Origin: Patescibacteria group bacterium
GTDB lineage: Bacteria > Patescibacteriota > Kazan-3B-28
DNA: 64,000 bases
Reading direction: 5' to 3'
Assembly (NCBI GenBank): GCA_041649135.1
Contig: JBAZNQ010000002.1
Coordinates: 41,238 to 105,237 of the forward strand
Shown here piece after piece: positions 1-51,653 of this stretch. A program made the translations under genes and the position numbers. Positions within the stretch are counted from its first letter, which is position 1. Each line of letters opens with the position of its first letter. The notes under the pieces were generated by a model, which was not told the DNA's origin, did no database searches, and saw nothing but the letters and a program-made list of their open reading frames with translations.

Positions 1-1115
1 TCGGCACTGCTCAAGCTGCCGGCATTGGCACATACACCGAAGAGCTAGTCGGGAATCTTTTGAAAGTCGATCCAGAGGATCACTACACCGTCTTTGTTAC
101 TCACGCTACTGCGGCCGTGTTCCCCTTTTATGGTCCCAACCTTACTAAGCAAGCAGTTCCGTATCGGCACTATACTTACTCTGAACAATTTTTCTACCCT
201 CGGCTGTTAAAGTCTGCCAAGCTCGACCTCATCCATTACACCAATTTTAATACTCCCGTTTTCTTCCGCTCGATTAAAAGCATCGTTACAATTCACGATT
301 TAACTTTATGGTTTTACCCCGGTCGGAAACATCGCAGCCCATTTAAGCGGTGGCTCTATCGCTATGTGATCGCCCAATCTTGCCGCAACGCCGAACGGAT
401 CATTGCCGTATCTCAAGGTACAAAACAGGACATCATCAAATATCTTAATATTCCTGCTGACAAAATTGATGTGATCTACGAAGGTGTCCCCCCACGGTTG
501 AAAACGGTGTCTACTCCCAAGCGGATGGAGATGATCAAGTCCAAATACAACATCACCTCTCCCTTCTTTTTATATGTCGGTCAATGGCGGGCCCACAAAA
601 ATCTTGAGCGATTAATTCGAGGTTTCGCCATTTTTCGCCGCCGCTACAATCTTGATTACCAATTGGTCATTGTCGGCAAACAAGATCCTCTAGCCCCCGA
701 AGTCCCCGCCACTATCAAACAGCTTGGGTTGCAGGACGCGATTGTCACTACTGGCTATATCGCCGATTCTGATTTGGCAGATTTTTATAATGCCGCCGAA
801 GCATTCGTCTTCCCCTCACTTTATGAGGGGTTTGGCATCCCCCCGCTCGAGGCAATGGGCCAAGGTACTCCCGTTATTTCATCCAACGTTTCAGTCATGC
901 CCGAGGTGTTGGGTGATGCCGCGCTTTATTTTGACCCCTTGAATCTTGAGGACATTGCCGCTAAGCTGTATCAGTTCGCGACTAGTTTTCGAGTGCGACA
1001 GGAGTTAAAAGAGCGGGGGCTGGCTCAAGCTCGCAAGTACTCATTTGGTCGGATGGCCAAAGAGACTCTGGCGGTCTATCAAAAAGTCTTAAACCCTCCG
1101 CCTCCGCCGAAGTAA
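1..1115 (+). CDS. Glycosyltransferase family 4 (GT-B fold), 5'-partial; frame is open back to the window start
   Basis: C-terminal [20 protein letters not shown] / ALYFDP motif typical of GT4 retaining glycosyltransferases. Upstream in-frame sequence ([10 protein letters not shown]) has no stop, so the gene begins before the window. Confidence 0.8.
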
Positions 1116-1162
1116 AATAAAGATTGTTATACCTCAAGTTTTATTAGTTAAAAAGTCTAATT

Positions 1163-3172
1163 ATGAATTCAATTGATCTAGTGCTGACTACAGCTTTGAT
1201 CGCTGGCGGGGTAGCGGTGGTATATGCTCTTATCTTGGTTGGCTGGGTGATGAAGCAACCAACTGGTAATGCCAAAATGGTCGAGATCGCCCACGCAATT
1301 CAAACAGGAGCGGCGGCGTATCTCAAACGCCAGTACTTAACTATCGCTCTGGTCGCGATCATTCTAGCTATTATTTTATATTTTGCACTAGGTCTTATGA
1401 CCGCTCTTGGATTTTTGGTTGGAGCAATTCTTTCTGGTGTCGCCGGCTTTGTTGGGATGAATGTTTCGGTTCGGGCTAATGTTAGAACCGCCGCCGCCGC
1501 CAGTCGTGGGATCGCCCCTGCTCTCGACCTTGCCTTCAGAGGTGGTGCAGTTACCGGCCTATTTGTAGTCGGTTTGGGATTGCTGGGAGTAACTGGATTT
1601 TATTTGTTAACTCGGGATGTTAATGCGCTGATCGGATTAGGTTTTGGTGGTAGTTTAATTTCTATTTTTGCTCGGCTTGGTGGCGGCATCTTTACCAAAG
1701 GGGCTGATGTTGGTGCTGACCTAGTCGGGAAAATCGAAGCTGGGATCCCCGAGGATGATCCCCGCAATCCTGCCGTCATCGCCGACAATGTCGGTGACAA
1801 TGTCGGTGATTGTGCCGGAATGGCCGCTGACTTATTTGAGACCTACGCCGTTACGGCTGTCGCTACAATGGTTCTGGCCGCGTTATTATTTGCCGGCAAT
1901 CCCCTGTTGATCACCTTCCCGCTAGCGATTGGGGCGGTTTCGATAGTTGCTTCGATCTTGGGTACTCTGTTTGTCCGACTGGGTAAAGGTAAAAATATTA
2001 TGGGCGCGATGTATAAAGGAATTATCGCCAGCGCTGTATTGGCTGCCGGCGGATTTTACTTTATTACCCGCTATCTTCTGTCGAACGTTACTGGAATTAA
2101 TTATCTGAACATCTTTTACGCTCTATTGATCGGGTTGGTTGTTACCGGCTTGATCATCTGGATTACCGAATACTATACTTCCACTCGGTTCGCGCCAGTT
2201 CGGTCAATTGCCAAAGCTTCTGAAACCGGCCACGGTACTAATATCATTACTGGTCTGGCGGTCGGAATGAAATCTACTACTCTACCGATCCTAGTTATTG
2301 TTGCTGCGATTTGGGGTTCCTATTATTTTGCTGGTCTCTTTGGCGTTGCAATGGCTGCCATGAGCATGCTCTCGCTGGTTGGGATCGTTGTGGCAGTTGA
2401 CGCGTATGGCCCGATTACTGATAACGCTGGTGGTATTGCGGAGATGTCTAATTTACCAGAATCAGTTCGCCAAGTTACCGATCCACTCGATGCGGTCGGT
2501 AACACTACCAAAGCCGTTACTAAGGGGTATGCTATCGGCTCCGCCGCATTAGCTACGATCGTGTTGTTTGCCGCATATACCGAAGAATTAAAAAACATTA
2601 CTGGTGCCGTGCCCCAGTTTTTACTTGGCGATCCGAAAGTTTTGATCGGTTTGTTTATTGGCGGTCTGCTTCCCTACCTGTTTGCCGCGTTGTCGATGGA
2701 GACTGTCAGTAAAGCGGCCATGGCCGTTGTCAAAGAAGTGCGTCATCAATTTGCGACGATCCAGGGGATCATGGAAGGTACGGCTAAACCCGACTATGCT
2801 CGGGCGGTTGATATTGTTACTCGTGCCGCAATTCGGGAAATGATCATACCGGCTCTTTTGCCAGTCGTCGTCCCGATCTTGGTTGGTTGGTTGCTAGGCC
2901 CCATTGCTCTGGGCGGCGTTTTGGTTGGAAGCATTATTACTGGCTTGTTCGTGGCCGTTTCTATGACTACTGGTGGCGCGGCATGGGATAACGCCAAAAA
3001 ATATATTGAAGAAGGACATTTAGGAGGCAAGGGCTCTGCTGCCCACGCCGCCGCTGTTACGGGTGATACCGTGGGCGACCCCTACAAAGATACTGCTGGT
3101 CCAGCCATCAACCCGATGATCAAGATCATTAATATCGTGGCTATTCTAGTGGTGAGTTTCTTATTACGGTAA
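1163..3172 (+). CDS. hppA: Membrane-bound proton/sodium-translocating pyrophosphatase (V-type H+-PPase)
   Basis: 669 aa polytopic protein with signature motifs [27 protein letters not shown] and [18 protein letters not shown]. Confidence 0.95.
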
Positions 3173-3180
3173 CTAAATTT

Positions 3181-3396
3181 ATGGGGGCAGAAGAGATTGC
3201 TTTACCAGCCCAGCTTGTCCGAACCACCTCGGGAGATGAGGTTCATCTCAATGATGGTCAGATTTTAAAACTGTCTGCTCCCCTTGGTTGTGCCGATCAT
3301 CAGGAATTGGTGGTCGTAGTCTTGGCTAAACCGTATTACCAAACCAACAAGCAGGAGCTAGCCAAACAGTTACTTCAGGAAATAATTAAGGGATAA
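3181..3396 (+). CDS. Small hypothetical protein
   Basis: 71 aa ORF sitting between hppA and the VanW-family gene; no recognisable motif. Confidence 0.3.
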   Translation: MGAEEIALPAQLVRTTSGDEVHLNDGQILKLSAPLGCADHQELVVVVLAKPYYQTNKQELAKQLLQEIIKG

Positions 3397-3403
3397 TTAA
3401 GGT

Positions 3404-4852
3404 ATGCGCGCTATTTCAGCTCATCTTCGGATCAGCCTCATCTCTGCGCTGGTCCTTGTTGGCATAATTGGCTCCGGAATTTGGTGGACGCCAAATTGGG
3501 TTTATCCCGATCATGTCTTAGCGGGGGTCAGTCTGATGGATATCCAATTAGGCAAATCTACCCAAACCCAAGCCGCGGTGTTACTTAGCAATTTAAGCGA
3601 TCGGGCTAAAATTGATCCGATCGAATTACAATTTGAAGGACAGGTCTGGCAGATCAACCCCGCCAACTTTGACCTTCGAGTTGAGCCAGATCAATTGGCT
3701 GAAGTTGCTTTTTCGGTTGGGCGTCGAGGCGGTTTCAACCAACGCTTACGAGAAAATTGGAGCGCTGTTTTGGGTTTGCGCCAGTCCCTCTCGATCGAAG
3801 ATGAATCACTCTATAGTTTTGATCGTCCAGCCCTTACCACTGCACTCGCCGAAGTTAGCTCGGCTATTGATCAAGTGCGACGCAACGCAGTATTAAAAAT
3901 GAAAGACGATCGGGTAACTGAATTCTCCCCCGCTCAAGATGGTCGCGAGCTGGATGTTGATAAGACCATCGATTTAATTGCCGGCAGTATTTTGAGTAAC
4001 GATCGGAAGATCGATCTACCAGTCAAAATTATTCCCGCTACTACCAATTTGGCTGGCACCAATACTTTGGGGATTAATACTCTACTGGGTCACGGTGAGT
4101 CAGATTTTTCTGGAAGTCCGAGCAATCGGCGGCACAATATTAGTGTCGGCGCCGATAAGTTTGACGGAGTGATCGTGGAGCCCAATGAGACTTTTTCTTT
4201 TATCCAACATCTCGGTGAGGTGAATCGCGCTACCGGCTTTTTGCCAGAGCTGGTGATCAAGGGCGACGAAACTGTCCCTGAATTTGGCGGCGGCCTTTGC
4301 CAAGTTTCCACTACCGCCTTTCGTGGCATTCTGCGAGCTGGTTTACCAATAGTTGAACGGCGGAACCATTCTTATCGGGTGGTCTATTACGAACCAGCTG
4401 GTAGCGATGCGACCATCTATCAACCCTACCCCGATCTAAAATTTACCAACGATACTTCCGGCCACGTTTTAATTGACACTTATATCATCGGCACCAAACT
4501 CTATTTTGATTTTTATGGGACTGATACTGGTCGAACAGTTGAAATGGAAGGCCCGTATATTTTTAACGTTACCGCTTACCCCGAACCGATCTATATTGAT
4601 ACCTCTACTTTGCCCGTTGGTGAAACCAAACGGATCGATACCGCTCATCGCGGTGCTGATGCGGTGCTGTATCGCAAAGTCTTCCAAAATGGCAAATTAG
4701 TTAAAACCGATACCTTCACCAGTCACTATGTCCCTTGGCCAGCCAAGTATTTACGTGGAGCCGAGGACGCGACTAAAGTAGAGACAGATCCCAGCAACAT
4801 CTCTCCTCCAGTTTCAGAAACGGATCCCAGTTTATCCCCCAGTATTCTATGA
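3404..4852 (+). CDS. VanW-family protein (N-terminal TM anchor)
   Basis: Motif GGGLCQVSTTAFRGILRAGLPIVERRNHSYRVVYYEPAGSDATI matches the VanW/YoaR domain signature (G-GGG-CQ-S-T...); N-terminal hydrophobic helix. Confidence 0.75.
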   Translation: MRAISAHLRISLISALVLVGIIGSGIWWTPNWVYPDHVLAGVSLMDIQLGKSTQTQAAVLLSNLSDRAKIDPIELQFEGQVWQINPANFDLRVEPDQLAEVAFSVGRRGGFNQRLRENWSAVLGLRQSLSIEDESLYSFDRPALTTALAEVSSAIDQVRRNAVLKMKDDRVTEFSPAQDGRELDVDKTIDLIAGSILSNDRKIDLPVKIIPATTNLAGTNTLGINTLLGHGESDFSGSPSNRRHNISVGADKFDGVIVEPNETFSFIQHLGEVNRATGFLPELVIKGDETVPEFGGGLCQVSTTAFRGILRAGLPIVERRNHSYRVVYYEPAGSDATIYQPYPDLKFTNDTSGHVLIDTYIIGTKLYFDFYGTDTGRTVEMEGPYIFNVTAYPEPIYIDTSTLPVGETKRIDTAHRGADAVLYRKVFQNGKLVKTDTFTSHYVPWPAKYLRGAEDATKVETDPSNISPPVSETDPSLSPSIL

Positions 4853-6035: not shown

Positions 6036-6251
6036 AACTTTACCTTAATCTTAACATCTCCCAACTTAAGCGTAATTGTGTGAGCTGTAAAGGATTTTTC
6101 TCACCAATCCCCAATTTGACAGCTCGTCTGCTTCGAGGTAAGCTGGCCTATCCGAGTCTCGTACTTGTCCCGTTAGAAATTTAGAAAACGGGCAACCTAG
6201 ATCGGGCTGAATCAGGATAATAGACTATAGCAAGCTAAAATTTCTAACGGG

Positions 6252-22512: not shown

Positions 22513-22608
22513 TTGGAATAATTAAGAATTAAGAATGAATAATGAAGAATGACGGAGGTCGCCTGCGGCGACTACTTTAATTTTTCACTTTTAACTATTC
22601 ACTATTAA

Positions 22609-25568: not shown

Positions 25569-25862
25569 ATGGGTTCAGGCGAAATGTTTCTGCTGGCTCC
25601 CCAATCAGGCAAAATCATTCAGTTTCTGGTGGAGGTTGGGCAGGACGTAGCAGAGGGGCAGACAGTCTTCGTCTTGGAGTATATGAAGATGCAGAATGAC
25701 ATCCCCTCCCCCAAGACCGGTCAGGTAGCCAAAATCTACTTCAAGCCGGAGGATATCGTCCAGCGGGACCAGCCAGTACTATTACTAACTGGTATAACCG
25801 AGGACTTGCCCCAATCCGAGACCCAGCCCATGTCAACCGACGACGAGGTATACCCCTATTAG
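25569..25862 (+). CDS. Biotin/lipoyl attachment (biotin carboxyl carrier-like) domain protein
   Basis: VLEYMKMQNDIPSPKTGQVAKIYFKPEDIVQRDQPVLLL closely resembles the BCCP core EAMKMMN...G-V..I.V..G..V....PL. Confidence 0.6.
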   Translation: MGSGEMFLLAPQSGKIIQFLVEVGQDVAEGQTVFVLEYMKMQNDIPSPKTGQVAKIYFKPEDIVQRDQPVLLLTGITEDLPQSETQPMSTDDEVYPY

Positions 25863-25883
25863 GACGCCTCGTCGTCCTTTTTC
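25861..25883 (+). terminator. Rho-independent terminator after the biotinyl-domain gene
   Basis: AGGACG-cctcgt-CGTCCT followed by TTTTT, overlapping the stop codon. Confidence 0.6.
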
Positions 25884-25984
25884 GGTATACTAAGAGTACT
25901 TGCCCCGTTAGAAATCTAAAAAACGGGCAGGACCGAGAGAGCAAAATAACAAGTTGGGCATAGCAAGCTAAGATTTCTAACAGG

Positions 25985-26728
25985 ATGTCAGGACACTCCA
26001 AGTGGTCTACTATCAAGCGGAAAAAAGGCGCCCTCGATGCCAAGAAGGGTGCCGAATTTACTAAGCTTGCCCGTTTAATCGAGGTTGCGGCCAAGTCGGG
26101 CGCCGATCCCAACATGAACTTCCGGCTTAAATTGGCTATTCAAAAAGCTAAGTCTGCCAATATGCCTTCTGCCAACATCGACAAAGCTGTCCGCAAAGGC
26201 GCTGGGCTAGATAAAGACAAAAGTAGCATTGAAGAAATTATGTACGAAGGTCTCGGACCGGGCAACGTGGCCGTCATGATCCAAGCCCTGACTGACAACA
26301 AAAACCGAACCGTCTCTGACTTGCGTAATCTTTTTACTAAAGCCGGTGGCAGTTTGGGAAACGCTGGTTCAGTCGCTTGGCAATTTGTCAGCAAAGGGAT
26401 TTTAATTGTTCCCCAAGGTGACCCCGACCTAGAATTAAAAGCTATTGAAGCCGGTGTGGAAGATATTCAGGATCAGGGCGACATTTGGGAGCTTCACACT
26501 CAACCTGCCCAACTTAATCAAGTTAAACAGGCGCTCATCACCGCTGGTGTTGCTATCTCGGAAGATAAGTTGGCTTTAGTTCCCACTAATTTAGTTAAAA
26601 TTACTGACCCAACTTTAGCCCAAAGGGTCATTCAATTTATGGAAACGCTCGAAGATAACGAAGACGTGGCAGAAGTTTTCAGCAATTTTGATATCGACGA
26701 CAGTGTTCTCTCCCAAATAGTAGACTAG
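25985..26728 (+). CDS. yebC: YebC/PmpR-family DNA-binding transcriptional regulator
   Basis: MSGHSKWSTIKRKKGALDAKKG...NKNRTVSDLR is the canonical YebC sequence. Confidence 0.95.
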   Translation: MSGHSKWSTIKRKKGALDAKKGAEFTKLARLIEVAAKSGADPNMNFRLKLAIQKAKSANMPSANIDKAVRKGAGLDKDKSSIEEIMYEGLGPGNVAVMIQALTDNKNRTVSDLRNLFTKAGGSLGNAGSVAWQFVSKGILIVPQGDPDLELKAIEAGVEDIQDQGDIWELHTQPAQLNQVKQALITAGVAISEDKLALVPTNLVKITDPTLAQRVIQFMETLEDNEDVAEVFSNFDIDDSVLSQIVD

Positions 26729-26929
26729 GTGCAACTGACGACCACACGTCATCCTGGTTCCCCCCTCGTCATTCCCGCGCAGGCGGGAATCCAGAAAAGA
26801 ATATTTTCTTTTTCTGTCTGGATCCTCGGGTCAAGGAACGTCTGACGTTCCAAGCCCGAGGATGACAAAATAAAATTGTGCCATAGGCAACGCCGCAATT
26901 ATTAACTATTCACTTTTAACTTTTCACTC

Positions 26930-32320: not shown

Positions 32321-32432
32321 ACTAGTAAAAGCCGCTAGTAACGGCAAATGATGAATGCCAAATAACCAATGATCGAATTTCCGGCTTTGCCGGAATACCA
32401 GAACTTTTCACTTTTAACTTTTCACTTTCCTC

Positions 32433-33452
32433 ATGCATTTAATTCCCATCCCTTGGACACTTCTTTTAACGGCCTTTGGCATTGCGTTTTTAATTACTCT
32501 CTTGGCAACGCCTTGGGTGACTAGTTTGGCTAAGCGTTACCGACTATTCGATTTGCCATCAGCTCGTCGGGTTCACACTAGTCCCATCCCCCGCATCGGC
32601 GGGCTAGCTTTATTTTTGGGATTTTTTATTGCGCTACTTGTTGTCTTCGGTTTCGACCCGCGTATTCTTGGTCTCGCGCTCTGCGCTATTTTAATTTTCG
32701 GGCTGGGTTTGTTGGATGATATTTATAGTCTTCCGCCAATCCTCAAATTTACTGGTCAGCTGGTAGTTGCCTCACTCGCAGTCTTTTTTGGGATTACTAT
32801 CGGCAACATTACCAATCCTTTCGGCGGGACAATTTTACTCTCCCCCATTTTTGACGTCAGTTTAACGATCGTGTGGATGCTATTGATGATCAATACCGTT
32901 AATTTTTTGGATGGATTGGATGGGCTAGCTACCGGCGTTACCGCTATCGTTTCCGTCGTGTTGGTAGTGTTAAGTTTATTTACGATTGTGGATCAACCCC
33001 AAACTGCTGCTCTTGCCGCGATGATTTGCGGCACGGCTCTGGGCTTCCTTTATTACAATTGGCACCCAGCTAAAATTTTTATGGGTGATGGAGGTTCTCA
33101 TTTGCTTGGCTTTATGTTGGCGGCTATTTCGATCATTAGTGGCGGGAAAATTGCCACGGCTGTTTTGGCTCTCGGTCTACCGGTCTTGGATTTGGTCTGG
33201 GCAATTGTCCGTCGGTTGAAAACCGGCAAAGCGCCATGGTCAGCCGACAAACTCCATCTCCACCACTTATTACTCTCCGCCGGCCTCGGCCAACGGACAG
33301 TGGTAACTATTTTTTATGTCTTTACTCTTGGCTTTGGTACAGTTGCGCTTCTTTCCGGAACTTGGAGCAAGTTGGTTGGTTTATTAATTGTCGGTTTGCT
33401 AATGGCGGGAATTGTGAGAGTAGCACTGTATTTTCGTCCGCAACAGAGGTAA
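32433..33452 (+). CDS. Polyprenyl-phosphate sugar-1-phosphate transferase (MraY/WecA family)
   Basis: About 10 TM helices, DD motif (LLDDIYSL) and family signature NTVNFLDGLDGLATG. Confidence 0.85.
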   Translation: MHLIPIPWTLLLTAFGIAFLITLLATPWVTSLAKRYRLFDLPSARRVHTSPIPRIGGLALFLGFFIALLVVFGFDPRILGLALCAILIFGLGLLDDIYSLPPILKFTGQLVVASLAVFFGITIGNITNPFGGTILLSPIFDVSLTIVWMLLMINTVNFLDGLDGLATGVTAIVSVVLVVLSLFTIVDQPQTAALAAMICGTALGFLYYNWHPAKIFMGDGGSHLLGFMLAAISIISGGKIATAVLALGLPVLDLVWAIVRRLKTGKAPWSADKLHLHHLLLSAGLGQRTVVTIFYVFTLGFGTVALLSGTWSKLVGLLIVGLLMAGIVRVALYFRPQQR

Positions 33453-34947: not shown

Positions 34948-35169
34948 ATGGGGGTTCTCATGCCAGTGCGCAGAAGAAGAAAGGCTGCTGCTAAACCAGC
35001 CGCCAAGAAAACTGTTCGTCGTCGTAAGGCGGCGAAGAAGACAACAGTCAAAAAGACTGTCCGTCGTCGCAAAGCGAAGAAGACAACAGCCAAGAAAAAG
35101 GTTGTCCGTCGTCGCAAAGCGAAGAAGACCACAACCAAGAAACGGGTTGTGCATCGTCGCAAAAAATAG
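34948..35169 (+). CDS. Small Lys/Arg-rich tandem-repeat protein (histone H1/Hc1-like nucleoid protein candidate)
   Basis: 73 aa with ~17-aa repeats KKT(T/V)xKK(T/K)VVRRRKAKK encoded by ~51-nt DNA repeats. The real start may be the second ATG at 34960 (MPVRRRRK), which is preceded by a GGGGG SD-like tract. Confidence 0.55.
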   Translation: MGVLMPVRRRRKAAAKPAAKKTVRRRKAAKKTTVKKTVRRRKAKKTTAKKKVVRRRKAKKTTTKKRVVHRRKK

Positions 35170-35186: not shown

Positions 35187-35216
35187 AAAAGACACTTCCT
35201 GGGGGGAGTGTCTTTT
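35187..35216. terminator. Bidirectional terminator hairpin between the convergent basic-protein gene and the iscS-like gene
   Basis: AAAAGACACT-tcctgggggg-AGTGTCTTTT, with a T-run on both strands. Confidence 0.55.
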
Positions 35217-35277
35217 ATATGGCTATATAAAAGTAACGCAGGGAGTGTCTTTTATATGGCTATATAAAAGTAACGCG
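35204..35277. repeat. Two tandem 37-bp direct repeats, each containing the palindrome CTTTTATAT-GGCT-ATATAAAAG
   Basis: GGGAGTGTCTTTTATATGGCTATATAAAAGTAACGC(A/G) occurs twice back to back; the first unit overlaps the terminator's 3' arm. Confidence 0.8.
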
Positions 35278-36430: not shown

Positions 36431-36925
36431 GTACCCTACCTATAACCATATCTTAATCCCAAGCCCATCACGGGGCGCCACCATCGTAACCGAAGAGGCT
36501 GTCTATAGAAAGGGAGGCCCCTAGAAACTAGGGGCCGAGGTGGTAGCAGAGTTGTCGGACAATAGTCCGAGCTCTACCATTACAATCTCCGTCGATGAGA
36601 CGGAGGTGGTGCTCTGGGAGAAGACCCCCAGCTGGACTAGGACTGCGATAAAGAAACACAGCAGTCCCGTCACAATTCCTACGGGAATCCAGCTACCCAC
36701 AGTACACCTCCAAGGTGCAACTCTGTGAACCCACAGGTGAGGAACTGATCGAGATTGACCAATTAGGTCATTATAGCAAAAAACTCGCTCCCAGTCAATG
36801 TTTTTCCCATTTTCCCTCCTATGAGAGTTATCACCCAGATCCACCCAACTCACCTATTTTCAGGTATATTGATAAATGTTCTCCCCAACTTTTAACTATT
36901 CACTTTTAACTCTTCACTTTCTTCT

Positions 36926-45393: not shown

Positions 45394-45467
45394 GCGGGTA
45401 TAGTTTAATGGTAGAATATCTCTTTTCCAAAGAGAATATACGGGTTCGATTCCCGTTACCCGCTCCA
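45394..45467 (+). tRNA. tRNA-Gly (anticodon UCC), CCA encoded
   Basis: Manual fold: acceptor GCGGGTA/TACCCGC, D-loop AATGGTAG, anticodon stem TCTCT/AGAGA with loop TTTCCAA (U33, anticodon TCC, A37), T-arm ACGGG-TTCGATT-CCCGT, discriminator T, then CCA. Confidence 0.85.
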
Positions 45468-46967
45468 GTCTGAACACAAGGCGCGCTCCGCGAGGAGCGC
45501 GTAAGGCGGAATCCAGTCCCAGAGCACTTTCCGAGAATTCAGAATCAGGTTCGAGCCAACCTCCGCGACAAAGTCGCGTAGTTCCAAGAGATCACCACCC
45601 GCAGCCGGGAGATTGCTCTCCCTGACTGCGTTAATCAGCTCCCGAAGAGGTTCGAGCCAGTACATCACCCCCTGACGGGCGATCTTGCCGAATTGGGTCT
45701 CAAGAGCTATCTTCGCATTCACCAACTTTCGCTTGCGGGCGGCATACTCCGCCCGATCAATTTCTCCATCTACATGCAAGTCATTCAATCTGCGCAGCTT
45801 CGCTGCGATCCCGGCAATTTCAATTTCAAGCTTGAGCGCTGGCGCATTCTCATTGGTTACGGCTTCAGCTTCCCAGTCGTCTAGCTGGCGGAGCATCGGG
45901 AAAACCCACTCCTCCGATTCTGGTAAGGCGATAGTCTTAAGCCGTTCCCACATCCTTGCTAATAAATCCTCTTCGCGCATAAACGGCTGGGAACATTTTA
46001 AAGTCCCGCCTTTTTTGGTGCAGCGATAGTAGCGCCAGACATGGTGGTTGCCGTTCTGCTGCGTCCTGACGTGTGTCTCGGCGGTAATCGAAGCTCCGCA
46101 TTCCCCACAGCGTATCAGCCCTAAGAATGGAAACTCTCTCTTGTAATGCGCTTGGGCTCTTCCTCGCTGAGCAAATACACGTTGCACCTTGTCCCAAAGT
46201 GCTTTGCTTACAACCGGTTCATGGCAACCCCTGTAAAGCTCGCCTTTCCACAAAATCGCCCCGTAGTAGAACGGATCAACCAGTATGCCCGACATGCTGG
46301 CTTTAGGGATCAAGGTCTCGTAGTAGCCCTTAAGCCCGTGTCCGTACATTACTTTCGCTAAGGCAAGCATTGAGTACTGGCCGGTGGCGTACAGCTCAAA
46401 CATCCGCTTGATTAACGGAAATCTGACAGGATCAGGAATAATCTCATGTGTTTTAGGATGATTGAGGTAGCCTAGTTTCGCTTTGCCGGGGTAGATGCCC
46501 TTCGCTAACTTAGATGCTAGACCACGGTGGACTAGCTCGCTCAGGTTATCAGTGTAGCGCTTGCTTTCGGCGAAAAAGAACGCCAGCATGAACTTGTCAG
46601 TACTCGTATTTTTGAAGGTAGAAGTAGCAGTCACAATCTGGTGCAATTGACCGGAATCGAGAAGCTCAATGATCCGCGCTCCATCCATAGCATTGCGGGC
46701 GATTCGTGAAGCATCATAAGCTAGCAGCGCGTTGGCTTTGCCCTGGCTGATGGAAGCAAGAACAGCATCAAACTGTGGCCTTCCTGGTTTCCTCGCACTC
46801 ATCGATTCCTCATACTGCTCTTCAAGACGCATTTGAAGGCTGCTAGCAGCTTTCAAAGCCCATTCGCGCTGGTCCGGGATGCTTTGTACTTGTCGCTCGT
46901 CGCTTTCAGTAGATTTACGGTAGTAAGCGACATATCTCAATTTGGTGTGCTGTAGTTTATTGCTCAT
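45456..46967 (-). CDS. Large serine recombinase (integrase), C-terminus overlapping the tRNA-Gly 3' end
   Basis: Resolvase/invertase N-domain with the catalytic serine region YYRKSTESDERQVQSIPDQ, a recombinase domain and a zinc ribbon (CGECGASI...C..C). The stop codon lies inside the tRNA acceptor stem. Confidence 0.9.
   Translation of the reverse strand: MSNKLQHTKLRYVAYYRKSTESDERQVQSIPDQREWALKAASSLQMRLEEQYEESMSARKPGRPQFDAVLASISQGKANALLAYDASRIARNAMDGARIIELLDSGQLHQIVTATSTFKNTSTDKFMLAFFFAESKRYTDNLSELVHRGLASKLAKGIYPGKAKLGYLNHPKTHEIIPDPVRFPLIKRMFELYATGQYSMLALAKVMYGHGLKGYYETLIPKASMSGILVDPFYYGAILWKGELYRGCHEPVVSKALWDKVQRVFAQRGRAQAHYKREFPFLGLIRCGECGASITAETHVRTQQNGNHHVWRYYRCTKKGGTLKCSQPFMREEDLLARMWERLKTIALPESEEWVFPMLRQLDDWEAEAVTNENAPALKLEIEIAGIAAKLRRLNDLHVDGEIDRAEYAARKRKLVNAKIALETQFGKIARQGVMYWLEPLRELINAVRESNLPAAGGDLLELRDFVAEVGSNLILNSRKVLWDWIPPYALLAERALCSDWSG
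45461..45539. repeat. Left copy of a perfect 79-bp inverted repeat (pairs with 47884..47962)
   Basis: CGCTCCAGTCTGAACACAAGGCGCGCTCCGCGAGGAGCGCGTAAGGCGGAATCCAGTCCCAGAGCACTTTCCGAGAATT is the exact reverse complement of 47884..47962. Its first 7 nt are the tRNA-Gly 3' end. Confidence 0.85.
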
Positions 46968-46969
46968 GG

Positions 46970-47830
46970 TTAACTCGGATTACTTGATGTACGATTTGCT
47001 GACTGACCACTTCGCGAAGTGGACACTTCCCATTTACCACCTTGAGCAACCACGCGGATACGACCGTCTCCACGGGTGGTAAGTACTCTACGGAATGTTC
47101 CGTCTTCGAGCTTTACACCGCGAGCGTGATCGCGGTACGGCGCGCGCTTGGTGAGTTGCCGTCCTTTGGCTTGCTCCTTGTCCGAGATCACGATGAGCTT
47201 AGGCGATAAGTACTGGAACGCTTCTTCGAGATAGCCGGTCGGCCTGCCGTGGTGTGAAGCTACCAGTAGGTTGGTCTCACGCAGCCAGTACTGGAACGCC
47301 TTGTTCTGTATGTGCAATCGCCAGCCACGAGCATTCAGGTCGCCAGGCAGACAGACGGTGAAGCCGTCCTCAGTGATAAACGAAACGAGCGACAGGTCGT
47401 TCACATCGCGAACACTGCCAAGCGGGAGATAGAACTGGTGTAACTCCATCGTCCTGAATTGGCGCGATGCTTCCATCGGCTGAAGCTCGGCGATGGTCTT
47501 GCTCTGCGACAAGTACGCTTTCTGCGCCTTGCTTAGCGTGTCCTTCAACTCGGACAATGTCTTCATAAACAACTGCGGGTGCTGCCAGACATGAACCGGC
47601 TGAAGCTTTTCAAGCACATTCGGCAAGTCAGCCAAGTGGTCTTGGTCTGGGTGGGTTAGTATCAGGTGGTGAAGTCTCCGGCGAGAACCGAAGCCCTGCT
47701 TAGCCAGCCCATCCGACGGCCGCCAGCCGGTCGTTGTGTTGTATCCGCAGTCTACTAGAACGGCTTCATTCTGCGCACTCAAGATGAGGACGCAGTCGCC
47801 ATGCTCAACATCGTAAATGCGGATTTCCAT
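46970..47830 (-). CDS. MBL-fold metallo-hydrolase
   Basis: HxHxDH motif (LTHPDQDHLADL) with additional His/Asp ligands; co-directional and tightly linked with the serine recombinase. Confidence 0.7.
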   Translation of the reverse strand: MEIRIYDVEHGDCVLILSAQNEAVLVDCGYNTTTGWRPSDGLAKQGFGSRRRLHHLILTHPDQDHLADLPNVLEKLQPVHVWQHPQLFMKTLSELKDTLSKAQKAYLSQSKTIAELQPMEASRQFRTMELHQFYLPLGSVRDVNDLSLVSFITEDGFTVCLPGDLNARGWRLHIQNKAFQYWLRETNLLVASHHGRPTGYLEEAFQYLSPKLIVISDKEQAKGRQLTKRAPYRDHARGVKLEDGTFRRVLTTRGDGRIRVVAQGGKWEVSTSRSGQSANRTSSNPS

Positions 47831-47883
47831 AACTCACACATTATCCGCCGGACACAAGGGCGGCGCAATCATTCCCTTCGCTC

Positions 47884-47962
47884 AATTCTCGGAAAGTGCT
47901 CTGGGACTGGATTCCGCCTTACGCGCTCCTCGCGGAGCGCGCCTTGTGTTCAGACTGGAGCG
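47884..47962. repeat. Right copy of the perfect 79-bp inverted repeat
   Basis: Exact reverse complement of 45461..45539 (checked base by base). Confidence 0.85.
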
Positions 47963-48254
47963 ATCTGCTCTCCAGGCTCCGAACTTACTTCGAGCATAAC
48001 ACATCGGAGAGGTAGGGATTCGAACTACCCCTATTTAAGCCCCTATGTACCGGTAAAAAGGGGTAACTCATAACGTCAACCCGCTTCCAGTCTAGGTTTC
48101 TCCTACATCGGAGATGTAGCTCTTGTAGCTGACACCGCCCCTGCCGCCGCTCGGAGAGCTGCGGGCGGGTCGGCGCATTCATATTCGACTGTGCGCGGGA
48201 ATTCAACATACTCAATAACAGGAACCAAAACACCTTCATCCGCATGATGAAAAC

Positions 48255-48290
48255 GGGCCGGAGAAGCGCGCTCCTCCGGCCGATGACGAT
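48255..48290 (-). terminator. Putative terminator of the minus-strand ZnR-membrane/GNAT/small-peptide operon
   Basis: Near-palindrome CCGGAGAAGCGCGCTCCTCCGG, followed on the minus strand by CCCGTTTTCAT. Confidence 0.4.
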
Positions 48291-48309
48291 GAGACACAAT
48301 CGCACTGCG

Positions 48310-48498
48310 CTAGAAGTGCCCGGACTCCTTCAACTGGCTCTCGCCGGTCTCAGTGTCGATCTCGTAGACCGTGTGGTAGGGCATTCCCAGCGCTGAGCTG
48401 TCGTGCCGTACTTCCACCGTGCCGCTACCCGTATTTGTCACGGTATCGCCAGCACTACTCGCGCTACCGTAGTCGCCTCCGGAGCTGCCGCCTGACAT
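48310..48498 (-). CDS. Small Gly/Ser-rich protein (62 aa), translationally coupled to the upstream GNAT gene
   Basis: Strong SD GGAGGTGA 6 nt before the ATG. MSGGSSGGDYGSASSAGDTVTNTGSGTVEVRHDSSALGMPYHTVYEIDTETGESQLKESGHF has no known motif. Confidence 0.4.
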   Translation of the reverse strand: MSGGSSGGDYGSASSAGDTVTNTGSGTVEVRHDSSALGMPYHTVYEIDTETGESQLKESGHF

Positions 48499-48504
48499 TC
48501 GCTT

Positions 48505-49116
48505 TCACCTCCCTTCCCGCAGATTGCTGTGAATGCTCGCTGCCGCCAGCTCGGGCCGGGCAGTGGTGTCGAGTGACCGTTGCGTTTCGTCGAACTGCTC
48601 CCGGCTGACGGCATAGAGCAGCAGGTCGTGGTAGCCGCCCCGCCAGTACAGGTGCTCGCGCAGCACCGCTTCCGGACGGATACCCGCCGCCTGCAAGGTG
48701 GCGTTGGATTCTTGGTTGAAGCCATATACCTCGGCATATAGCTTGCGCAGGGGGTAGTTATCGAAAAGCCAAGCCGCGAAGCTCCGGGCGGCCCAGCTGC
48801 CCAGGCCACGCCGGCGGTTGGCCGCTTCGATGAACACCGCCAGGTACGCCCAGCCATGCAGTGAGTTGTAGTTGTAGGAGTAGACCGTGCCCACGGCTTT
48901 GCCTTCCGCACGCACCATGAAGCGGACGTGAGTGGACGCCTCGGTTTCCTGGAACTCCCGTGCGAACTGCTCGGGATTGCGCGGCGCGCGACGGGGGTAC
49001 CAAAGCGATAACGTTGCCAGATCGTTGCGCCAAGCATGCAGCACTGGCCGGTCGGCTTCACACATCGGACACAGCTCCGCTGGCGTGGGGCTGTTAGGTT
49101 GGGGGCTGCTACTCAT
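48505..49116 (-). CDS. GNAT-family N-acetyltransferase (RimJ/RimL-like)
   Basis: Acetyl-CoA-binding motif RRRGLGSWAARSF within a GNAT fold of ~200 aa. Confidence 0.85.
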   Translation of the reverse strand: MSSSPQPNSPTPAELCPMCEADRPVLHAWRNDLATLSLWYPRRAPRNPEQFAREFQETEASTHVRFMVRAEGKAVGTVYSYNYNSLHGWAYLAVFIEAANRRRGLGSWAARSFAAWLFDNYPLRKLYAEVYGFNQESNATLQAAGIRPEAVLREHLYWRGGYHDLLLYAVSREQFDETQRSLDTTARPELAAASIHSNLREGR

Positions 49117-49623
49117 TTAGTTCAGCTCCCGCAGACGCTTGATGTCCATGATGATGTTGATGGGCAGGATGATGAACGCGAACGGCGCGACGAGTACTAT
49201 GCCGCAGATGAAGATGATGATCCAGTTGTTGACTGTGGTGAAGTACATCAGGCCGGTGATATCCGACAGCTTGTCCATCAGCTTGCGGAAGTTGACGAAT
49301 GACCAGATGATGGTTGGAATGACCAGCAGGCTGATGAAGGCCGCTCCGTGCGGCGGCTCTCCGGTGCTGGCACTGGCGACGGCCACTAGGGCGATGATGC
49401 CGATGAGTAACGTCCCCAGCACGCTGCCACTAATGACCAGCTGGCGGATGATCGCCCCGCGCTCCGTCGCCAGCGCGTCCTGGTATTCACCGGCCATGGT
49501 GGTATAGCAGTGTTCGCAGATCGGCTGGCCGAAACGCTCGCTGCACTCGCGGCATAGCCCGCGTCCGCAGCCTTGGCTGCACATACCAACAGCCCGCTCC
49601 AGCGAATGCTTGTAGCAGTTCAT
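49117..49623 (-). CDS. Zinc-ribbon membrane protein (hypothetical)
   Basis: N-terminal Cys cluster (CSQGCGRGLCRECSERFGQPICEHC) followed by 3-4 TM helices. First gene of a three-gene minus-strand operon. Confidence 0.5.
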   Translation of the reverse strand: MNCYKHSLERAVGMCSQGCGRGLCRECSERFGQPICEHCYTTMAGEYQDALATERGAIIRQLVISGSVLGTLLIGIIALVAVASASTGEPPHGAAFISLLVIPTIIWSFVNFRKLMDKLSDITGLMYFTTVNNWIIIFICGIVLVAPFAFIILPINIIMDIKRLRELN

Positions 49624-49719
49624 GTAGCACTCCCTAGTTGTTGCTGCGCATATTATAACATGCGTTTAGCAATATGTGCTGTACTTACTGCATGCTCCGT
49701 TTCCTGATACCTATTAACT

Positions 49720-49962
49720 GTGGAGCTGGCTCAGCAAGTAGGGATGAACATCCGCGTTCTACGGGTACGGCGCAGGCTGTCGCAAGAGAAGCTGGCCGAG
49801 CGGATGGGCATCGAGCGGCAGCAGGTCAGCGACATCGAGTTGGGCAAGCGCAATCTGACACTGCTGACCGTTACGCGAATCTGCCAAGCCTTAAACTGCC
49901 AGCCATCTGAGTTGTTCGCGGACACGTCGATAGAGCTAAGTCAGGGAAAGCGTAGTCGATAG
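49720..49962 (+). CDS. XRE-family helix-turn-helix transcriptional regulator
   Basis: LRVRRRLSQEKLAERMGIERQQVSDIELGKRNLTLLTVTRICQALNCQPSELF is a Cro/C1-type HTH; divergent from the GNAT operon. Confidence 0.8.
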   Translation: MELAQQVGMNIRVLRVRRRLSQEKLAERMGIERQQVSDIELGKRNLTLLTVTRICQALNCQPSELFADTSIELSQGKRSR

Positions 49963-49985
49963 ATTTCGGCAGTAGCCGTATATCA

Positions 49986-51653
49986 GTGGGGGATCTTGTG
50001 TTTGAGCATTCACCTTCTGTGTGGGATGTAGTAAGTGCTATCGCCAGCAGCCTGATGCTGTGGGCTTTGGTGATTCTGCTGCTGCTGGCCGTGCGCCTTT
50101 GGTTGACCAAGTTCATCTACTACATGCAGGACTACACCACCGGCTTTCTCAAAGTACGTGGCTTGGTAGCTGCCGCACAGCGTGAAGACGCATGGAAACT
50201 CAGCGAGCATCGTCCCGTTGGCAAGTATGCCGACTGCTCACTGACGCTCGGACTAACAGAGAGCAGCGGCTACTCACAGCCATTTGTGGTTCCCGGCGAT
50301 TACCGCACTACTCATATGTATGTGGTGGGCGCTTCCGGCTCCGGCAAGTCGTCGTTGCTGAAGAACCTGATCCATCAGGACATCCGCAGCGGGATGGGAC
50401 TGTGTGTGATCGACCCGCACGGCGATCTGATCTATGACACGGTGGCGCAGCTGGGCAAGCGAGCGGAGCAAACCGTGATGCTGGACTTGGCGGATACGGA
50501 ACACATGCTCGCGTACAATCCGCTTGAGCGCAGGCAAGGTGTGCTGGTTGCCGAGCAGGTGGCGAAGCTGATACTGGCGTTTCAGCGGATTTGGTCTGAC
50601 AGCTGGGGGTCTAGGATGGAAGACATCCTGCGCCATACGCTGACGCTGCTTGTCGAGCAGGGATACACGCTGGCGGAGTTCGAGCGCGTGCTGACCGACG
50701 CGGACTTCCGCGAGATGTTGGTTGAAGCATCGATGATTGACCAAACGCGCGAGTACTTCCTTGGACGCTACAACACATGGAACAGCAAGGAACGCCAGCT
50801 CTTCAGCGAGTCCTCTCTTAACAAGGTCTCGGCGTTCATGGCCGATCCTCGCATTGGCGTGAGACTCGGCCAGACTAAGTCCGGCTTCAACCTAAAGGAC
50901 ATCATGGACACCGGTGGGATACTGCTGGCGAATCTCGCGAAAGGCAAGCTGGCGGGTAACGCAGACCTATTCGGCGCGCTGCTGATGGCTGACATTGAAA
51001 TGAGCTTCCTTTCCCGCCCGCCAAACCAGCGCAGTCCGTTCGCGCTGTATGTCGATGAGTTTCAGAACATCGCAACGGAGAGTTTCGAGACGGTGCTGGC
51101 GGAAGCGCGCAAGTTTGGCCTGTGCTTAACGATGGCGCACCAATCCCTGAAGCAGGTTGATGACACGCTGGCTTCGCTCATCCTCGGCAACGCGCAGACG
51201 CAGGTGTACTTCCGTGTTGGCAGGCAAGATGCGGAGCGGTTGGCGAAAGAGTCTGCCAACATTATCGCGCAGCTGATCGAGCAAGAGGAAGAGCCGCAAT
51301 TGATGCAGGAACGGGAGCGGAAGTTCTCCATGTCCGAGTTATGGGAAGCGGCTTTTCACCAGCTTGTCCGGCTTGAGCCGCGCCGGGCTTATGTGATGGT
51401 CAAGGGCGCGATGGAGCATCCGGAGCTGGTTCGCACGATAGATAATCCTGTGGTCAAGAGCGTGAAGTTCCCTTACAGCGCAGCCTACGCCAAGCTGGAA
51501 GTGTTTGAGGCGGCGCTGAAACAGCGGGCGAAAGACATCATGCATGCAGTGGATGAGTACGTGAAGCAGAGGCAAGCGAAACAAGGCAAGCCAATTGAAG
51601 CCAGTCCTGGCGCGGATGAGGAAGTACCGGCAGCATTGGACTTCTTGAAGTAG
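49986..51653 (+). CDS. Type IV coupling-protein-like ATPase (TraD/TraG/VirD4 family; TraM-recognition/DUF87-like)
   Basis: N-terminal TM helix, Walker A VVGASGSGKSSLL, Walker B ALYVDEFQNI and a C-terminal TraD/TraG-like region (KFGLCLTMAHQSLKQV). Confidence 0.7.
   Translation: MGDLVFEHSPSVWDVVSAIASSLMLWALVILLLLAVRLWLTKFIYYMQDYTTGFLKVRGLVAAAQREDAWKLSEHRPVGKYADCSLTLGLTESSGYSQPFVVPGDYRTTHMYVVGASGSGKSSLLKNLIHQDIRSGMGLCVIDPHGDLIYDTVAQLGKRAEQTVMLDLADTEHMLAYNPLERRQGVLVAEQVAKLILAFQRIWSDSWGSRMEDILRHTLTLLVEQGYTLAEFERVLTDADFREMLVEASMIDQTREYFLGRYNTWNSKERQLFSESSLNKVSAFMADPRIGVRLGQTKSGFNLKDIMDTGGILLANLAKGKLAGNADLFGALLMADIEMSFLSRPPNQRSPFALYVDEFQNIATESFETVLAEARKFGLCLTMAHQSLKQVDDTLASLILGNAQTQVYFRVGRQDAERLAKESANIIAQLIEQEEEPQLMQERERKFSMSELWEAAFHQLVRLEPRRAYVMVKGAMEHPELVRTIDNPVVKSVKFPYSAAYAKLEVFEAALKQRAKDIMHAVDEYVKQRQAKQGKPIEASPGADEEVPAALDFLK

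Follow-up and report, generated by a model that had tools for sequence, protein, structure and literature searches.

The closest described counterparts of the element reported here are the Correia elements, MITEs confined to Neisseria that are ~100-150 bp long, have repeats of 26 bp and duplicate a TA target. Both they and the present family are short, bounded by terminal inverted repeats, devoid of a transposase gene and located mostly just upstream of genes; both are co-transcribed with the gene to give a long mRNA hairpin that can affect expression, although here transcript and hairpin are predictions. The family described below differs in its 13-bp repeats, its 4-bp duplication of the TRAA type, its landing on and rebuilding of start codons, and its occurrence in several phyla. 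Correia elements have been reported to carry promoters and an IHF site and to be cut by RNase III at their repeats (PMC10969869). Rickettsia palindromic elements (RPEs), which yield in-frame fusions (PMC10969869), are likewise palindromic mobile repeats that are tolerated because the gene product stays intact, but they measure ~100-150 bp, lie inside coding regions and are found only in Rickettsia, whereas the present family sits at the first codon or near the start. ERIC/IRU, RUP, BOX and REP/REPIN are also small, repeated, hairpin-forming sequences of intergenic DNA that is transcribed, and an influence on mRNA stability has been proposed for them; REPs/REPINs, however, leave no target duplication and rely on RAYT (Y1) transposases, while ERIC, RUP and BOX each occur in a single family or genus. 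We know of none among these that is tied to start codons.

Start-site-sequestering leaders such as RNA thermometers and translational operators resemble the present element in its would-be working, not in family membership: each has a helix over the initiation region and an alternative upstream pairing that frees the start, as predicted here. They differ in that the structure here would derive from transposon ends and covers no Shine-Dalgarno sequence, and in that no input by temperature, ligand or protein is evident. According to a census of 183,232 genomes, prokaryotic MITE clusters, defined at 95% identity, are almost all genus-specific (PMC11602168). The same 13-bp ends in multiple phyla, placement at start codons, and the conversion of leaderless genes into genes with structured leaders seem an unusual trio for a prokaryotic MITE. 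A literature search with the arm sequence as DNA and as RNA returned no relevant paper (the sole match concerned carrot), and queries on start-codon MITEs, or on MITEs of these phyla, returned general MITE papers only. We found no description of this element, and it has no Rfam family.

Two copies of a repeat precede yebC and nrnA

The window, by which we mean the whole 64-kb stretch of DNA that was analysed, carries two copies of the element, both on the forward strand and both ending directly at a start codon. The initial annotation had described a leader element before yebC as a second copy of one before nrnA, and this is correct: 25896-25984 resembles 6161-6251 in a 34-nt 5' block, a 28-nt 3' block and the arms, and the nrnA copy has both arms exact (6169-6251) followed by ATG. 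The coordinates proposed at yebC also hold, with an exact CCCGTTAGAAAT at 25904-25915 and the yebC start codon at 25985-25987. On alignment the similarity extends well beyond a pair of promoter-like hexamers, comprising the 34-nt 5' block GTACTTGYCCCGTTAGAAATYTARAAAACGGGCA (25896-25929 vs 6161-6194, 91% identity) and the 28-nt 3' block ATAGCAAGCTAARATTTCTAACRGGATG common to both copies. The 20-nt and 22-nt versions of these blocks have exactly two occurrences each in the window and none in 100 dinucleotide shuffles; the ~30 nt that separate the blocks are not alignable between the copies. The arms themselves are complementary 12-mers (CCCGTTAGAAAT / ATTTCTAACGGG), pairing at 12/12 positions in the nrnA copy and 11/12 in the yebC copy, and the distance from arm end to arm end is 83 and 81 nt, respectively. 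No further copy was detected within the 64 kb, other matches with up to two mismatches being single arms at chance level.

Upstream of the yebC copy and outside it, the biotinyl/lipoyl-domain gene ends in the terminator-like structure that had been noted earlier (25861-25883), a hairpin at 25861-25878 with a 6-bp stem containing four G-C pairs, followed by the T-run TTTTTCGG. Next comes TATACT (25886-25891), the -10-like hexamer of a putative yebC promoter that is kept in relatives, and then, at the position of the ancestral leaderless start codon, the subfamily-typical 6-mer ACTTGC (25898-25903). The left terminal inverted repeat, or 5' arm, is an exact match to the family-defining CCCGTTAGAAAT (25904-25915). 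It is followed by an internal box, AACGGGCA (25922-25929), a partial copy of the right arm that pairs with CCCGTT of the left arm into a predicted local 5' hairpin; ACTTGC can pair with the CAG that follows this box or, using a U-G pair, with AUG. A variable A-rich interior (25930-25972) ends in the 13 nt ATAGCAAGCTAAG (25960-25972), a block common only to the nrnA copy of the same genome, and the right terminal inverted repeat, or 3' arm, ATTTCTAACAGG (25973-25984) has one mismatch, a C.A opposite C25906. The ATG of yebC (TACO1/YebC family, 25985-26728) directly abuts this arm, and the product starts MSGHSKW, with TACO1/YebC Pfam domains from residue 5. Since the element lies between the upstream terminator and promoter on one side and the start codon on the other, it should belong to the mRNA leader.

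The sister copy (6161-6251) precedes a DHH/DHHA1 (nrnA-like) gene whose ATG begins at 6252. Its parts, read from the sequence, are GTACTTGT (6161-6168), the left arm (6169-6180), AACGGGCA (6187-6194), the 3' block (6227-6239) and the right arm (6240-6251). The likely nrnA promoter is TTGACA-17 nt-TAAGCT (6116-6144), which is conserved in orthologues that lack the element.

A multi-phylum family defined by its ends

More than 130 elements of 56-99 nt bounded by the same arms were found in MAGs and metagenomes. A genome scan with the 5' box alone gave 18 loci, and in 14 of these the right arm, which had not been searched for, lay 57-99 nt downstream; the titles name Phycisphaerae, Pirellulales, Planctomycetota, Omnitrophota, 'delta proteobacterium' and Saccharibacteria. 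A metagenome scan gave at least 120 loci with more than 128 copies. Hosts belong to many uncultivated bacterial lineages and include Patescibacteria, Omnitrophota, Planctomycetota and others, with flanking GC of 30-60%. Family statistics given below refer to 138 non-redundant copies among the matches listed, with a median length of 66 nt, and copies of ~120-200 nt also occur at some loci. Positions -1 and +1 are complementary in 94% of the 138 copies, which extends the arms to a 13-bp terminal inverted repeat, YCCCGTTAGAAAT ... ATTTCTAACGGGR, and arm variants are compensated (AGAAAC/GTTTCT, AGAAGC/GCTTCT, AGAGAC/GTCTCT). Between the arms, interiors of 33-75 nt cannot be aligned between subfamilies, their length varies even within one genome, and their GC content tracks that of the flanks (r = 0.51). 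Only the arms are common to the whole family, and it therefore lacks the conserved core expected of a riboswitch or protein-binding leader. Rfam 15 was searched at gathering thresholds over the window and 13 loci, and over 25850-26020 with E-values of up to 10 allowed; the output held only one tRNA and two chance-level matches.

Copies are dispersed, with two in the window and four or five in 4.7 kb of one locus (L040), and nested copies occur in L018, L065, L066 and L092. Among viral contigs, three stretches on two contigs were matched, and so phages are not an obvious reservoir; a plasmid BLAST returned just chance 27-nt matches in Bacillus. In ~1.1 Mb of loci we detected neither a transposase gene nor a longer element sharing these ends that could be an autonomous partner, none of the arm pairs 0.7-3 kb apart encloses a transposase-like ORF, and a search for a transposase beside solo arms gave host genes only. 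The 82-nt inverted repeats at 45461 and 47881 of the window, considered for this part, are unrelated in sequence and enclose a large serine recombinase. Two other identities were considered and rejected: a CRISPR-like array, suggested by ATTTCTAACGGGGTAAACCCCGTTAGAAAT junctions, which are adjacent or nested copies in a family whose elements are mostly solitary; and an attC/integron site, because the order GTTAGAA...TTCTAAC is the reverse of an attC core pair and the genes here are housekeeping.

Target duplications and empty sites

Flanking 6-mers of the 138 copies match at 4.0 of 6 positions in register, against 1.6-1.7 in shifted registers and 2.4 for re-paired flanks. Identity is concentrated at flank positions 2-5 (~80%), a locus-specific 4-bp direct repeat that corresponds to a target duplication, usually TRAA (TGAA or TAAA). 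The window copies and their subfamily are without an intact duplication, with CTTG on the left vs TGTC or TGGA on the right. Their left flank, AC(T/C)TGY, recurs at six different genes, and this common flank is not explained by simple cut-and-paste insertion. A hint from metK in L113 that the interior duplicates the flank proved not to be general, the longest common substrings being those of permuted controls.

Insertion is shown at lepA by an exact pair of sites: the empty site (L156) reads TATAATttgattaATGAGTCAAG, and the filled one (L022) reads TATAATttgaccaATGAGT[76 nt]ATGAGTCAAG. Where the element is absent the pattern is TATAAT-N7-ATGAGTCAAG; where it is present, ATGAGT[76 nt]ATGAGTCAAG. 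At yebC, the site is filled in the window, L008 and L023 and empty in L004, L006 and L009, and (TGC)TATACT lies upstream of yebC in all five of these relatives. Empty sites have TATACT, exactly 6 nt and then ATG or GTG, a leaderless layout; filled sites have the identical -10 and 6 nt, then ACTTGY, the element and ATG. In the window an 87-nt insert (25898-25984) thus separates a leaderless-type TATACT plus 6 nt from the yebC ATG, and across the family the spacing from the -10-like hexamer shows a peak. The nrnA site is filled in the window only and empty in L149-L152, of which L149, L150 and L152 have TTGACA-17-TAAGCT, then 13-16 nt and ATG, and L151 has the variant TTGACA-17-TATGTT followed by 12 nt.

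Filled yebC sites occur in genomes whose YebC proteins are only 79% identical; arms and box are kept there, and the interior has diverged. The 3' block is genome-specific rather than gene-specific, one version being shared by the nrnA and yebC copies of the window and another by yebC in L008 and gmk in L027. Such a distribution needs either gene conversion or repeated insertion at yebC, two histories that are indistinguishable here because the YebC identities are star-like.

It might be proposed that the arms are operator half-sites for a DNA-binding regulator that loops the promoter region; YebC itself, given its annotation as a YebC/PmpR regulator, would be one candidate. Identical 12-bp inverted sites do bracket the region from promoter to start, and sources name the product of one of these genes as a DNA-binding regulator. 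Arm spacing, however, varies from 33 to 75 bp across the family and even within one genome, the phyla and genes involved have no common regulator, and target duplication and empty sites would be left unexplained; we give this proposal almost no credence.

Placement at start codons and orientation

A start codon is abutted at offset 0 by 55 of the 138 copies (40%), while any other distance is represented by at most four. The downstream genes include panC, pilT, fba, murG, rnhB, gap, greA, tpiA, ftsW, kdsB, lepA, gmk, rpmE and prmC, with functions ranging over glycolysis, cell wall, translation, replication and pili. Downstream Pfam domains begin at residues 1-7, indicating that these are native N-termini. 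In 15 copies the stop codon of the upstream gene lies inside the duplication; elsewhere the element is placed where stop and start codons overlap, or closely precedes a Shine-Dalgarno sequence. The duplicated TG together with the last base of the element (A or G) rebuilds ATG or GTG, so that the gene keeps its start codon. An in-frame open ATG is present at 18 of 28 GTG-type junctions vs 2 of 26 ATG-type junctions (Fisher p = 1.6e-5), and GTG-type copies translate the right arm as I-S-N-G, MetK of L113 with MEIKKTAKISNGVKQ... being one instance; the window copies add zero residues to the protein. An upstream ORF running from the duplicated upstream ATG to UAA in the right arm holds for L022 and L033, but was dropped as a general mechanism because the lengths have no frame preference and many such ORFs end early.

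Copies are strongly oriented relative to the gene. The sense strand of the interior has more A than T in 47 copies and more T than A in five, and the internal right-arm-like box adjoins the left arm in 38 gene-oriented copies, with the opposite arrangement in three. This bears on another reading of the structure, that of an invertible promoter segment (inverton), in which a recombinase flips a short promoter between inverted repeats and turns the gene on or off. Perfect inverted repeats surround an AT-rich interior, often with -10-like hexamers (in the window TAAAAT and TAAGAT, immediately preceding the right arm; in L070 TGTTATAAT), and inversion of Correia elements has been reported (PMC10969869). 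Yet the flanks are direct target duplications, which are absent from invertons, and 47 of 52 informative copies have a single orientation relative to the gene. Interiors of 33-60 bp are moreover very short for recombinase synapsis. No invertase lies near the window copies, whose neighbours encode S20, DNA polymerase III delta and PNPase in one case and a UvrD-type helicase, RuvC and RuvA in the other; the sole site-specific recombinase of the window is the large serine recombinase, which belongs to a tRNA-Gly island at a distance of 20 kb. The -10-like hexamer is also not conserved within the subfamily, and an inverton is in our view highly improbable. The related idea that TAAAAT/TAAGAT is an internal -10 box giving a near-leaderless transcript was set aside, the box not being conserved in L027 or L040.

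Probably a mobile element rather than a dedicated leader

The family combines terminal inverted repeats, small size without an internal transposase gene, empty sites and multiple copies. We consider it very probable that 25898-25984 and its sister 6161-6251 are copies of a small, non-autonomous, MITE-type mobile element, a conclusion drawn from shared arms around unrelated interiors, the 4-bp repeats, the lepA pair and the element-less orthologues of yebC and nrnA. The two window copies may now be immobile and simply tolerated, and the hairpin may secondarily affect how both genes are translated or how stable their mRNAs are.

The initial annotation had raised co-regulation of nrnA and yebC, and a dedicated cis-regulatory RNA leader common to the two genes deserves consideration, whether riboswitch-like or a protein-binding switch. 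Arms and box would then act as sequestor and anti-sequestor, with a ligand or protein choosing between them; on this reading a trans-acting factor might bind the AGAAAU loop or the ATAGCAAGCTAA block and shift the fold. Several observations fit: the predicted pairings are mutually exclusive and hide or expose AUG, blocks outside the arms are conserved within this genome, gene orientation is strong family-wide, and arms and box are retained at yebC despite divergence of both YebC and the interior. Even so, a dedicated leader is unlikely. More than 130 copies stand before functionally unrelated genes and orthologues of yebC and nrnA do without one; interiors vary in length and sequence across the family, only the arms being shared, and so offer no candidate binding core; insertion is documented elsewhere in the family by target duplications and an exact empty site; and covariation is not above that given by the inverted repeats. 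Thus nrnA and yebC share a mobile insertion, membership in a common regulon is not shown, and for this window a false lead is removed.

Predicted folds and consequences for the leader

Two mutually exclusive folds are predicted for the transcribed element. In the first, the arms would pair into a ~16-bp helix over positions -14 to +2 around AUG; in the second, the left arm would pair with the internal AACGGGCA box, aided by a CTTG-CAR pairing, leaving the A-rich linker, the right arm and AUG single-stranded. Minimum free energies are -25.4 kcal/mol (z = -2.8) for the nrnA copy and -21.7 (z = -1.7) for the yebC copy. For slightly longer stretches the values are -25.4 (nrnA) and -23.8 (yebC), becoming -12.2 and -18.0 when the start region is forced unpaired. 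The consensus helix has 16 pairs, one of them compensated. In the local hairpin 98% of cells are paired, seven of nine pairs are invariant and none is compensated. Counts of G.U vs A.C, which would tell RNA-level from DNA-level pairing, do not favour G.U. The start regions in the window have no Shine-Dalgarno sequence to mask.

Both the transcription start and the folds in vivo are inferred by us. On that basis, insertion at yebC would have turned a leaderless mRNA into one with a leader of ~87 nt, nearly all of it element, and the second fold would form first during transcription, so that the gene stays translatable. We conjecture that the hairpin at the 5' terminus and the long helix modulate both the stability of the mRNA and its translation.

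A more far-reaching version, which we put forward only tentatively and regard as somewhat doubtful, is that the family constitutes a 'portable leader' that spreads horizontally, is adapted to start sites, installs a two-state hairpin gating initiation, and has been selected by the host at yebC and nrnA. Its targets would be the TGAA of ATGAA starts, ATGA stop/start overlaps and the TAAA of TAAAGGAG; the start would be rebuilt or brought along, through the terminal A/G or an in-frame ATG; and the 5' hairpin of AC(T/C)TGY and AACGGGCA would be an evolved anti-sequestor. The importance of such a leader would be greatest in bacteria whose mRNAs are leaderless or lack a Shine-Dalgarno sequence. Should the hairpin indeed act on initiation, the family would provide a natural experiment on how leaderless or Shine-Dalgarno-less initiation tolerates 5' structure in Patescibacteria and similar lineages, and its members would also mark true start codons in the annotation of MAGs.

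The element before yebC and its family

The repeat upstream of yebC proves to belong to a MITE-like family of mobile elements and to have inserted in the interval that separates the promoter from the start codon; we hold both the family membership and the insertion to be highly probable. Its left arm, CCCGTTAGAAAT (25904-25915), is an exact match; its right arm (25973-25984) complements the left at all but one position and is followed without a gap by the yebC ATG at 25985. The sister copy has two exact arms (6169-6180 and 6240-6251) and likewise abuts a start ATG, here that of a DHH/DHHA1 (nrnA-like) gene. Common to both copies are a 5' block of 34 nt (GTACTTGYCCCGTTAGAAATYTARAAAACGGGCA, 91% identical) and a 3' block of 28 nt (ATAGCAAGCTAARATTTCTAACRGGATG), separated by a central ~30 nt that is unalignable; the window contains two instances of each block in its 20-22-nt version, against none in 100 shuffles. 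A search across the 64-kb window found no third copy. The initial annotation had placed one element before both genes, with the yebC copy running from the terminator of the biotinyl-domain gene to the yebC start codon, and this description holds: a terminator-like hairpin lies 5' of the yebC copy at 25861-25878, and the alignment finds the two shared blocks rather than likeness confined to a promoter-like hexamer pair.

The 5' box on its own (CCCGTTAGAAAT, N5-9, AACGGGCA), scanned against a single genome from each species, recovered 18 loci, 14 of which carry the right arm, itself outside the search pattern, 57-99 nt downstream. Record titles, with MAG taxonomy labels as given, include Phycisphaerae, Pirellulales, Planctomycetota, Omnitrophota, 'delta proteobacterium', Saccharibacteria and MAGs. 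A metagenome scan for two arms 32-62 nt apart yielded at least 120 loci, a sample selected for perfect arms. After duplicate removal, the matches listed comprise 138 copies of 56-99 nt, in hosts with flank GC of 30-60%, which interior GC tracks (r = 0.51). Interiors fall into many mutually unrelated subfamilies, and the arms alone are common to the family. That the arms form an operator pair is a reading that fails on their variable spacing and on the host range.

Members may be nested or adjacent, and some genomes are densely loaded. A 700-kb contig of a Kazan-group bacterium (L040) has 4-5 members in 4.7 kb (1075-4462): two in tandem upstream of rpmE (ATGAGT, element, ATGAAT, element, ATGAAG), one with an extra right arm upstream of prmC and one upstream of gmk; two copies of ~118 nt in L040 have a long interior in common. 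At another locus (L018, 6398-6436) a variant hairpin, CCCCGTTAGAGAC...GTCTCTAACGGGG, with compensating changes in both arms, is nested within a standard element. Only three stretches of viral contigs contain the element, no autonomous partner was found in the collected loci, and the window's only site-specific recombinase is a large serine recombinase in an island at tRNA-Gly.

The nearest known systems are Correia elements and Rickettsia palindromic elements (PMC10969869). Correia elements are located 5' of genes, bear promoters, form hairpins in the shared transcript and have repeats that RNase III cuts; the Rickettsia elements are in-frame insertions that keep proteins intact. In a census of 183,232 genomes, MITE clusters (95% identity) were genus-specific for ~1.37 of 1.41 million bacterial elements (PMC11602168). 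The present family differs from known MITE-type systems in sharing the same ends across phyla, in landing precisely on start codons and restoring the codon, and in converting leaderless genes. A literature search found the arm sequence in no relevant paper.

Orthologous sites and target duplication

By the names its YebC and NrnA homologues carry, the genome belongs to the Patescibacteria/CPR, close to the 'Kazan' group. Most window genes lack a Shine-Dalgarno sequence. Between the terminator-like hairpin and the yebC copy lies TATACT (25886-25891), and two layouts occur at this site among relatives with YebC identities of 77-82%. Empty sites (L004, L006, L009) read (TGC)TATACT, 6 nt, then ATG or GTG, a leaderless layout; filled sites (the window, L008, L023) keep that -10 box and the 6-nt spacing, after which come ACTTGY, the element (81-82 nt) and ATG. 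The nrnA site is filled only in the window genome, four relatives (L149-L152) having TTGACA, 17 nt, TAAGCT (TATGTT in L151), 12-16 nt and ATG. With orthologues of both genes found with and without it, the element is therefore an insertion, patchily distributed among close relatives. The -10 box lies 6-7 nt 5' of the start codon, with no leader, at the empty yebC sites (position 10001) and at one lepA site (L156; 604), a spacing that suggests leaderless mRNAs are common in these Patescibacteria. Between a UvrD-type helicase gene and yebC, divergent neighbours in L004, L006, L008 and L009, the window lineage alone has the biotinyl/lipoyl-domain gene (25569-25862), which is equipped with a terminator and an AGGAGG Shine-Dalgarno sequence of its own.

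Among the listed copies, the left and right 6-mers next to the 12-nt arms agree at 4.0 of 6 positions in register, compared with 1.6-1.7 at shifted registers and 2.4 with flanks re-paired between loci; flank positions 2-5 are ~80% identical between sides, and in 94% of copies the bases at -1 and +1 complement each other. This is most simply read as a 13-bp terminal repeat (YCCCGTTAGAAAT) plus duplication of 4 bp, for the most part TNNA and more rarely CNNG. A lepA pair displays the insertion event exactly: L156 (LepA 91% identical) is empty, TATAATttgattaATGAGTCAAG, and L022 is filled, TATAATttgaccaATGAGT, 76 nt, ATGAGTCAAG.

In the subfamily of the two window copies (W1, W2, L008/L023, L027, L040, L038, L106) the duplication is not visible; AC(T/C)TGY replaces the duplicated ATGNNY of other copies and occupies the exact former position of the leaderless start codon. 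The 3' block is specific to the genome, not to the gene, which requires either gene conversion or more than one insertion at yebC; star-like YebC identities fit both alike.

When interiors are oriented by the downstream gene, A exceeds T in 47 copies and T exceeds A in 5, and a partial right-arm copy (AACGGG, AAYGGGG or TCTAAYGGGG) adjoins the left arm in 38 copies, with the mirror layout in 3. The transcribed strand is thus distinguished, by selection or by the insertion process itself. An inverton is a very unlikely account of the element, given this orientation bias and the target duplications.

Placement on translation starts

Counting ORFs of at least 60 aa, 55 of the 138 listed copies abut a start codon at offset 0, and every other distance has at most 4 copies. 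In ten abutted proteins scanned against Pfam (PanC, PilT, class-I aldolase, MurG, RNase HII, GAPDH, GreA, TIM, FtsW, KdsB) domains begin at residues 1-7, and the abutted starts are therefore native N-termini; PilT is the exception, with a T2SSE match from residue 119. The ten have no function in common. A riboswitch-like leader fails as an explanation, since a conserved core is lacking, downstream genes are unrelated, orthologous sites occur empty and Rfam holds no matching family.

The start-codon pattern arises because the element's terminal base joins the duplicated TG. On insertion, a target A/TGAA/A would become ATGAA-C...G-TGAAA, the last element base (G or A) and the duplicated TG making a new GTG or ATG start. 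The 6-mer 5' of the element opens with ATG, the duplicated start, in 39 of the 55 start-abutting copies. An in-frame open ATG lies a few codons inside the element in 18 of 28 GTG-type junctions versus 2 of 26 ATG-type junctions (Fisher p = 1.6e-5); the control frames of GTG-type copies have 2 ATGs together. A -10-like hexamer peak 6-7 nt upstream of the pre-element 6-mer, in 10 of the 55, is the putative signature of leaderless genes. Some copies lie directly 5' of a Shine-Dalgarno sequence, e.g. GTAAAGGAGG.

The duplication contains the upstream gene's stop codon in 15 copies, former ATGA overlaps among them. At four such overlaps (L116, L120, L131, L058) the left duplicate retains the upstream gene's TGA, and the GTG created at the right junction is the new start of the downstream gene, the once-overlapping genes now lying 60-80 nt apart. 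The metK ORF of L113 (2159-2239) has its first ATG within the element, and its frame runs on across the right arm (MEIKKTAKISNGVKQ...). The native start, ATGGAGATAAAACAAACA, sits immediately 5' and overlaps secD at its end, and the interior sequence ATGGAGATTAAAAAAACA is a near-copy of it. Resemblance of this kind between interior and flank is not a rule across the family.

Predicted folding and expression

Judging from the orthologues, yebC transcription would start ~6-7 nt after TATACT, near 25898, giving a leader of ~87 nt that is essentially the element. Minimum-energy folds pair the arms in both the nrnA copy (-25.4 kcal/mol, z = -2.8) and the yebC copy (-21.7 kcal/mol, z = -1.7), and the subfamily alignment gives a consensus 16-pair helix, with one compensated pair, that takes in U.A and G.U pairs with the A and U of AUG. 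At predicted equilibrium, positions -12 to +3 are nearly all paired in the nrnA copy and less so in the yebC copy, which has a C.A mismatch near AUG. Folded alone, the 5' part forms a hairpin (CTTG-Y-CCCGTT / AACGGG-CAR) that is paired in 98% of subfamily-alignment cells; with the start region forced open, energies are -12.2 (nrnA) and -18.0 kcal/mol (yebC). In this alignment the 5' hairpin has no compensated pair, and arm extensions and imperfect arms have no excess of G.U over A.C; putative RNA-level pairing is therefore compatible with the data.

From these folds, the arm helix would block initiation, and the 5' hairpin, forming first in transcription, would leave the A-rich linker, right arm and AUG accessible; its place at the extreme 5' end might give the mRNA added stability. 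The chance that expression is measurably affected is put at about even. Dedicated co-regulation of nrnA and yebC, raised in the initial annotation, seems very unlikely.

Other repeats and a probable mobile island in the window

A second start-proximal repeat, AACTATTCACTTTTAACTNTTCACT (two TTCACT 12 nt apart), occurs at 22568-22603, 26893-26928, 32391-32426 and 36883-36918. Three copies end 1-7 nt 5' of an ATG, namely that of ruvC (26930) and those of the genes starting at 32433 and 36926; the remaining copy is flanked by two minus-strand genes. The sequence may be a motif of promoter or operator type, or a further small repeat. Downstream of tRNA-Gly (45394-45467), 82-nt inverted repeats, 99% identical (45461-45542 and 47881-47962), bound a segment with a large serine recombinase (45456-46967) and an MBL-fold gene, followed by a type IV secretion coupling protein (49986-51653); by gene content, 45394-51653 looks like an integrated mobile island. 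GTG starts are numerous from this region to the window end. A 37-nt unit occurs in two tandem copies, 97% identical, at 35204-35277, close to three Lys/Arg-rich repeats of 42-45 nt (34997-35141; AAKKTVRRRKA-like in translation).
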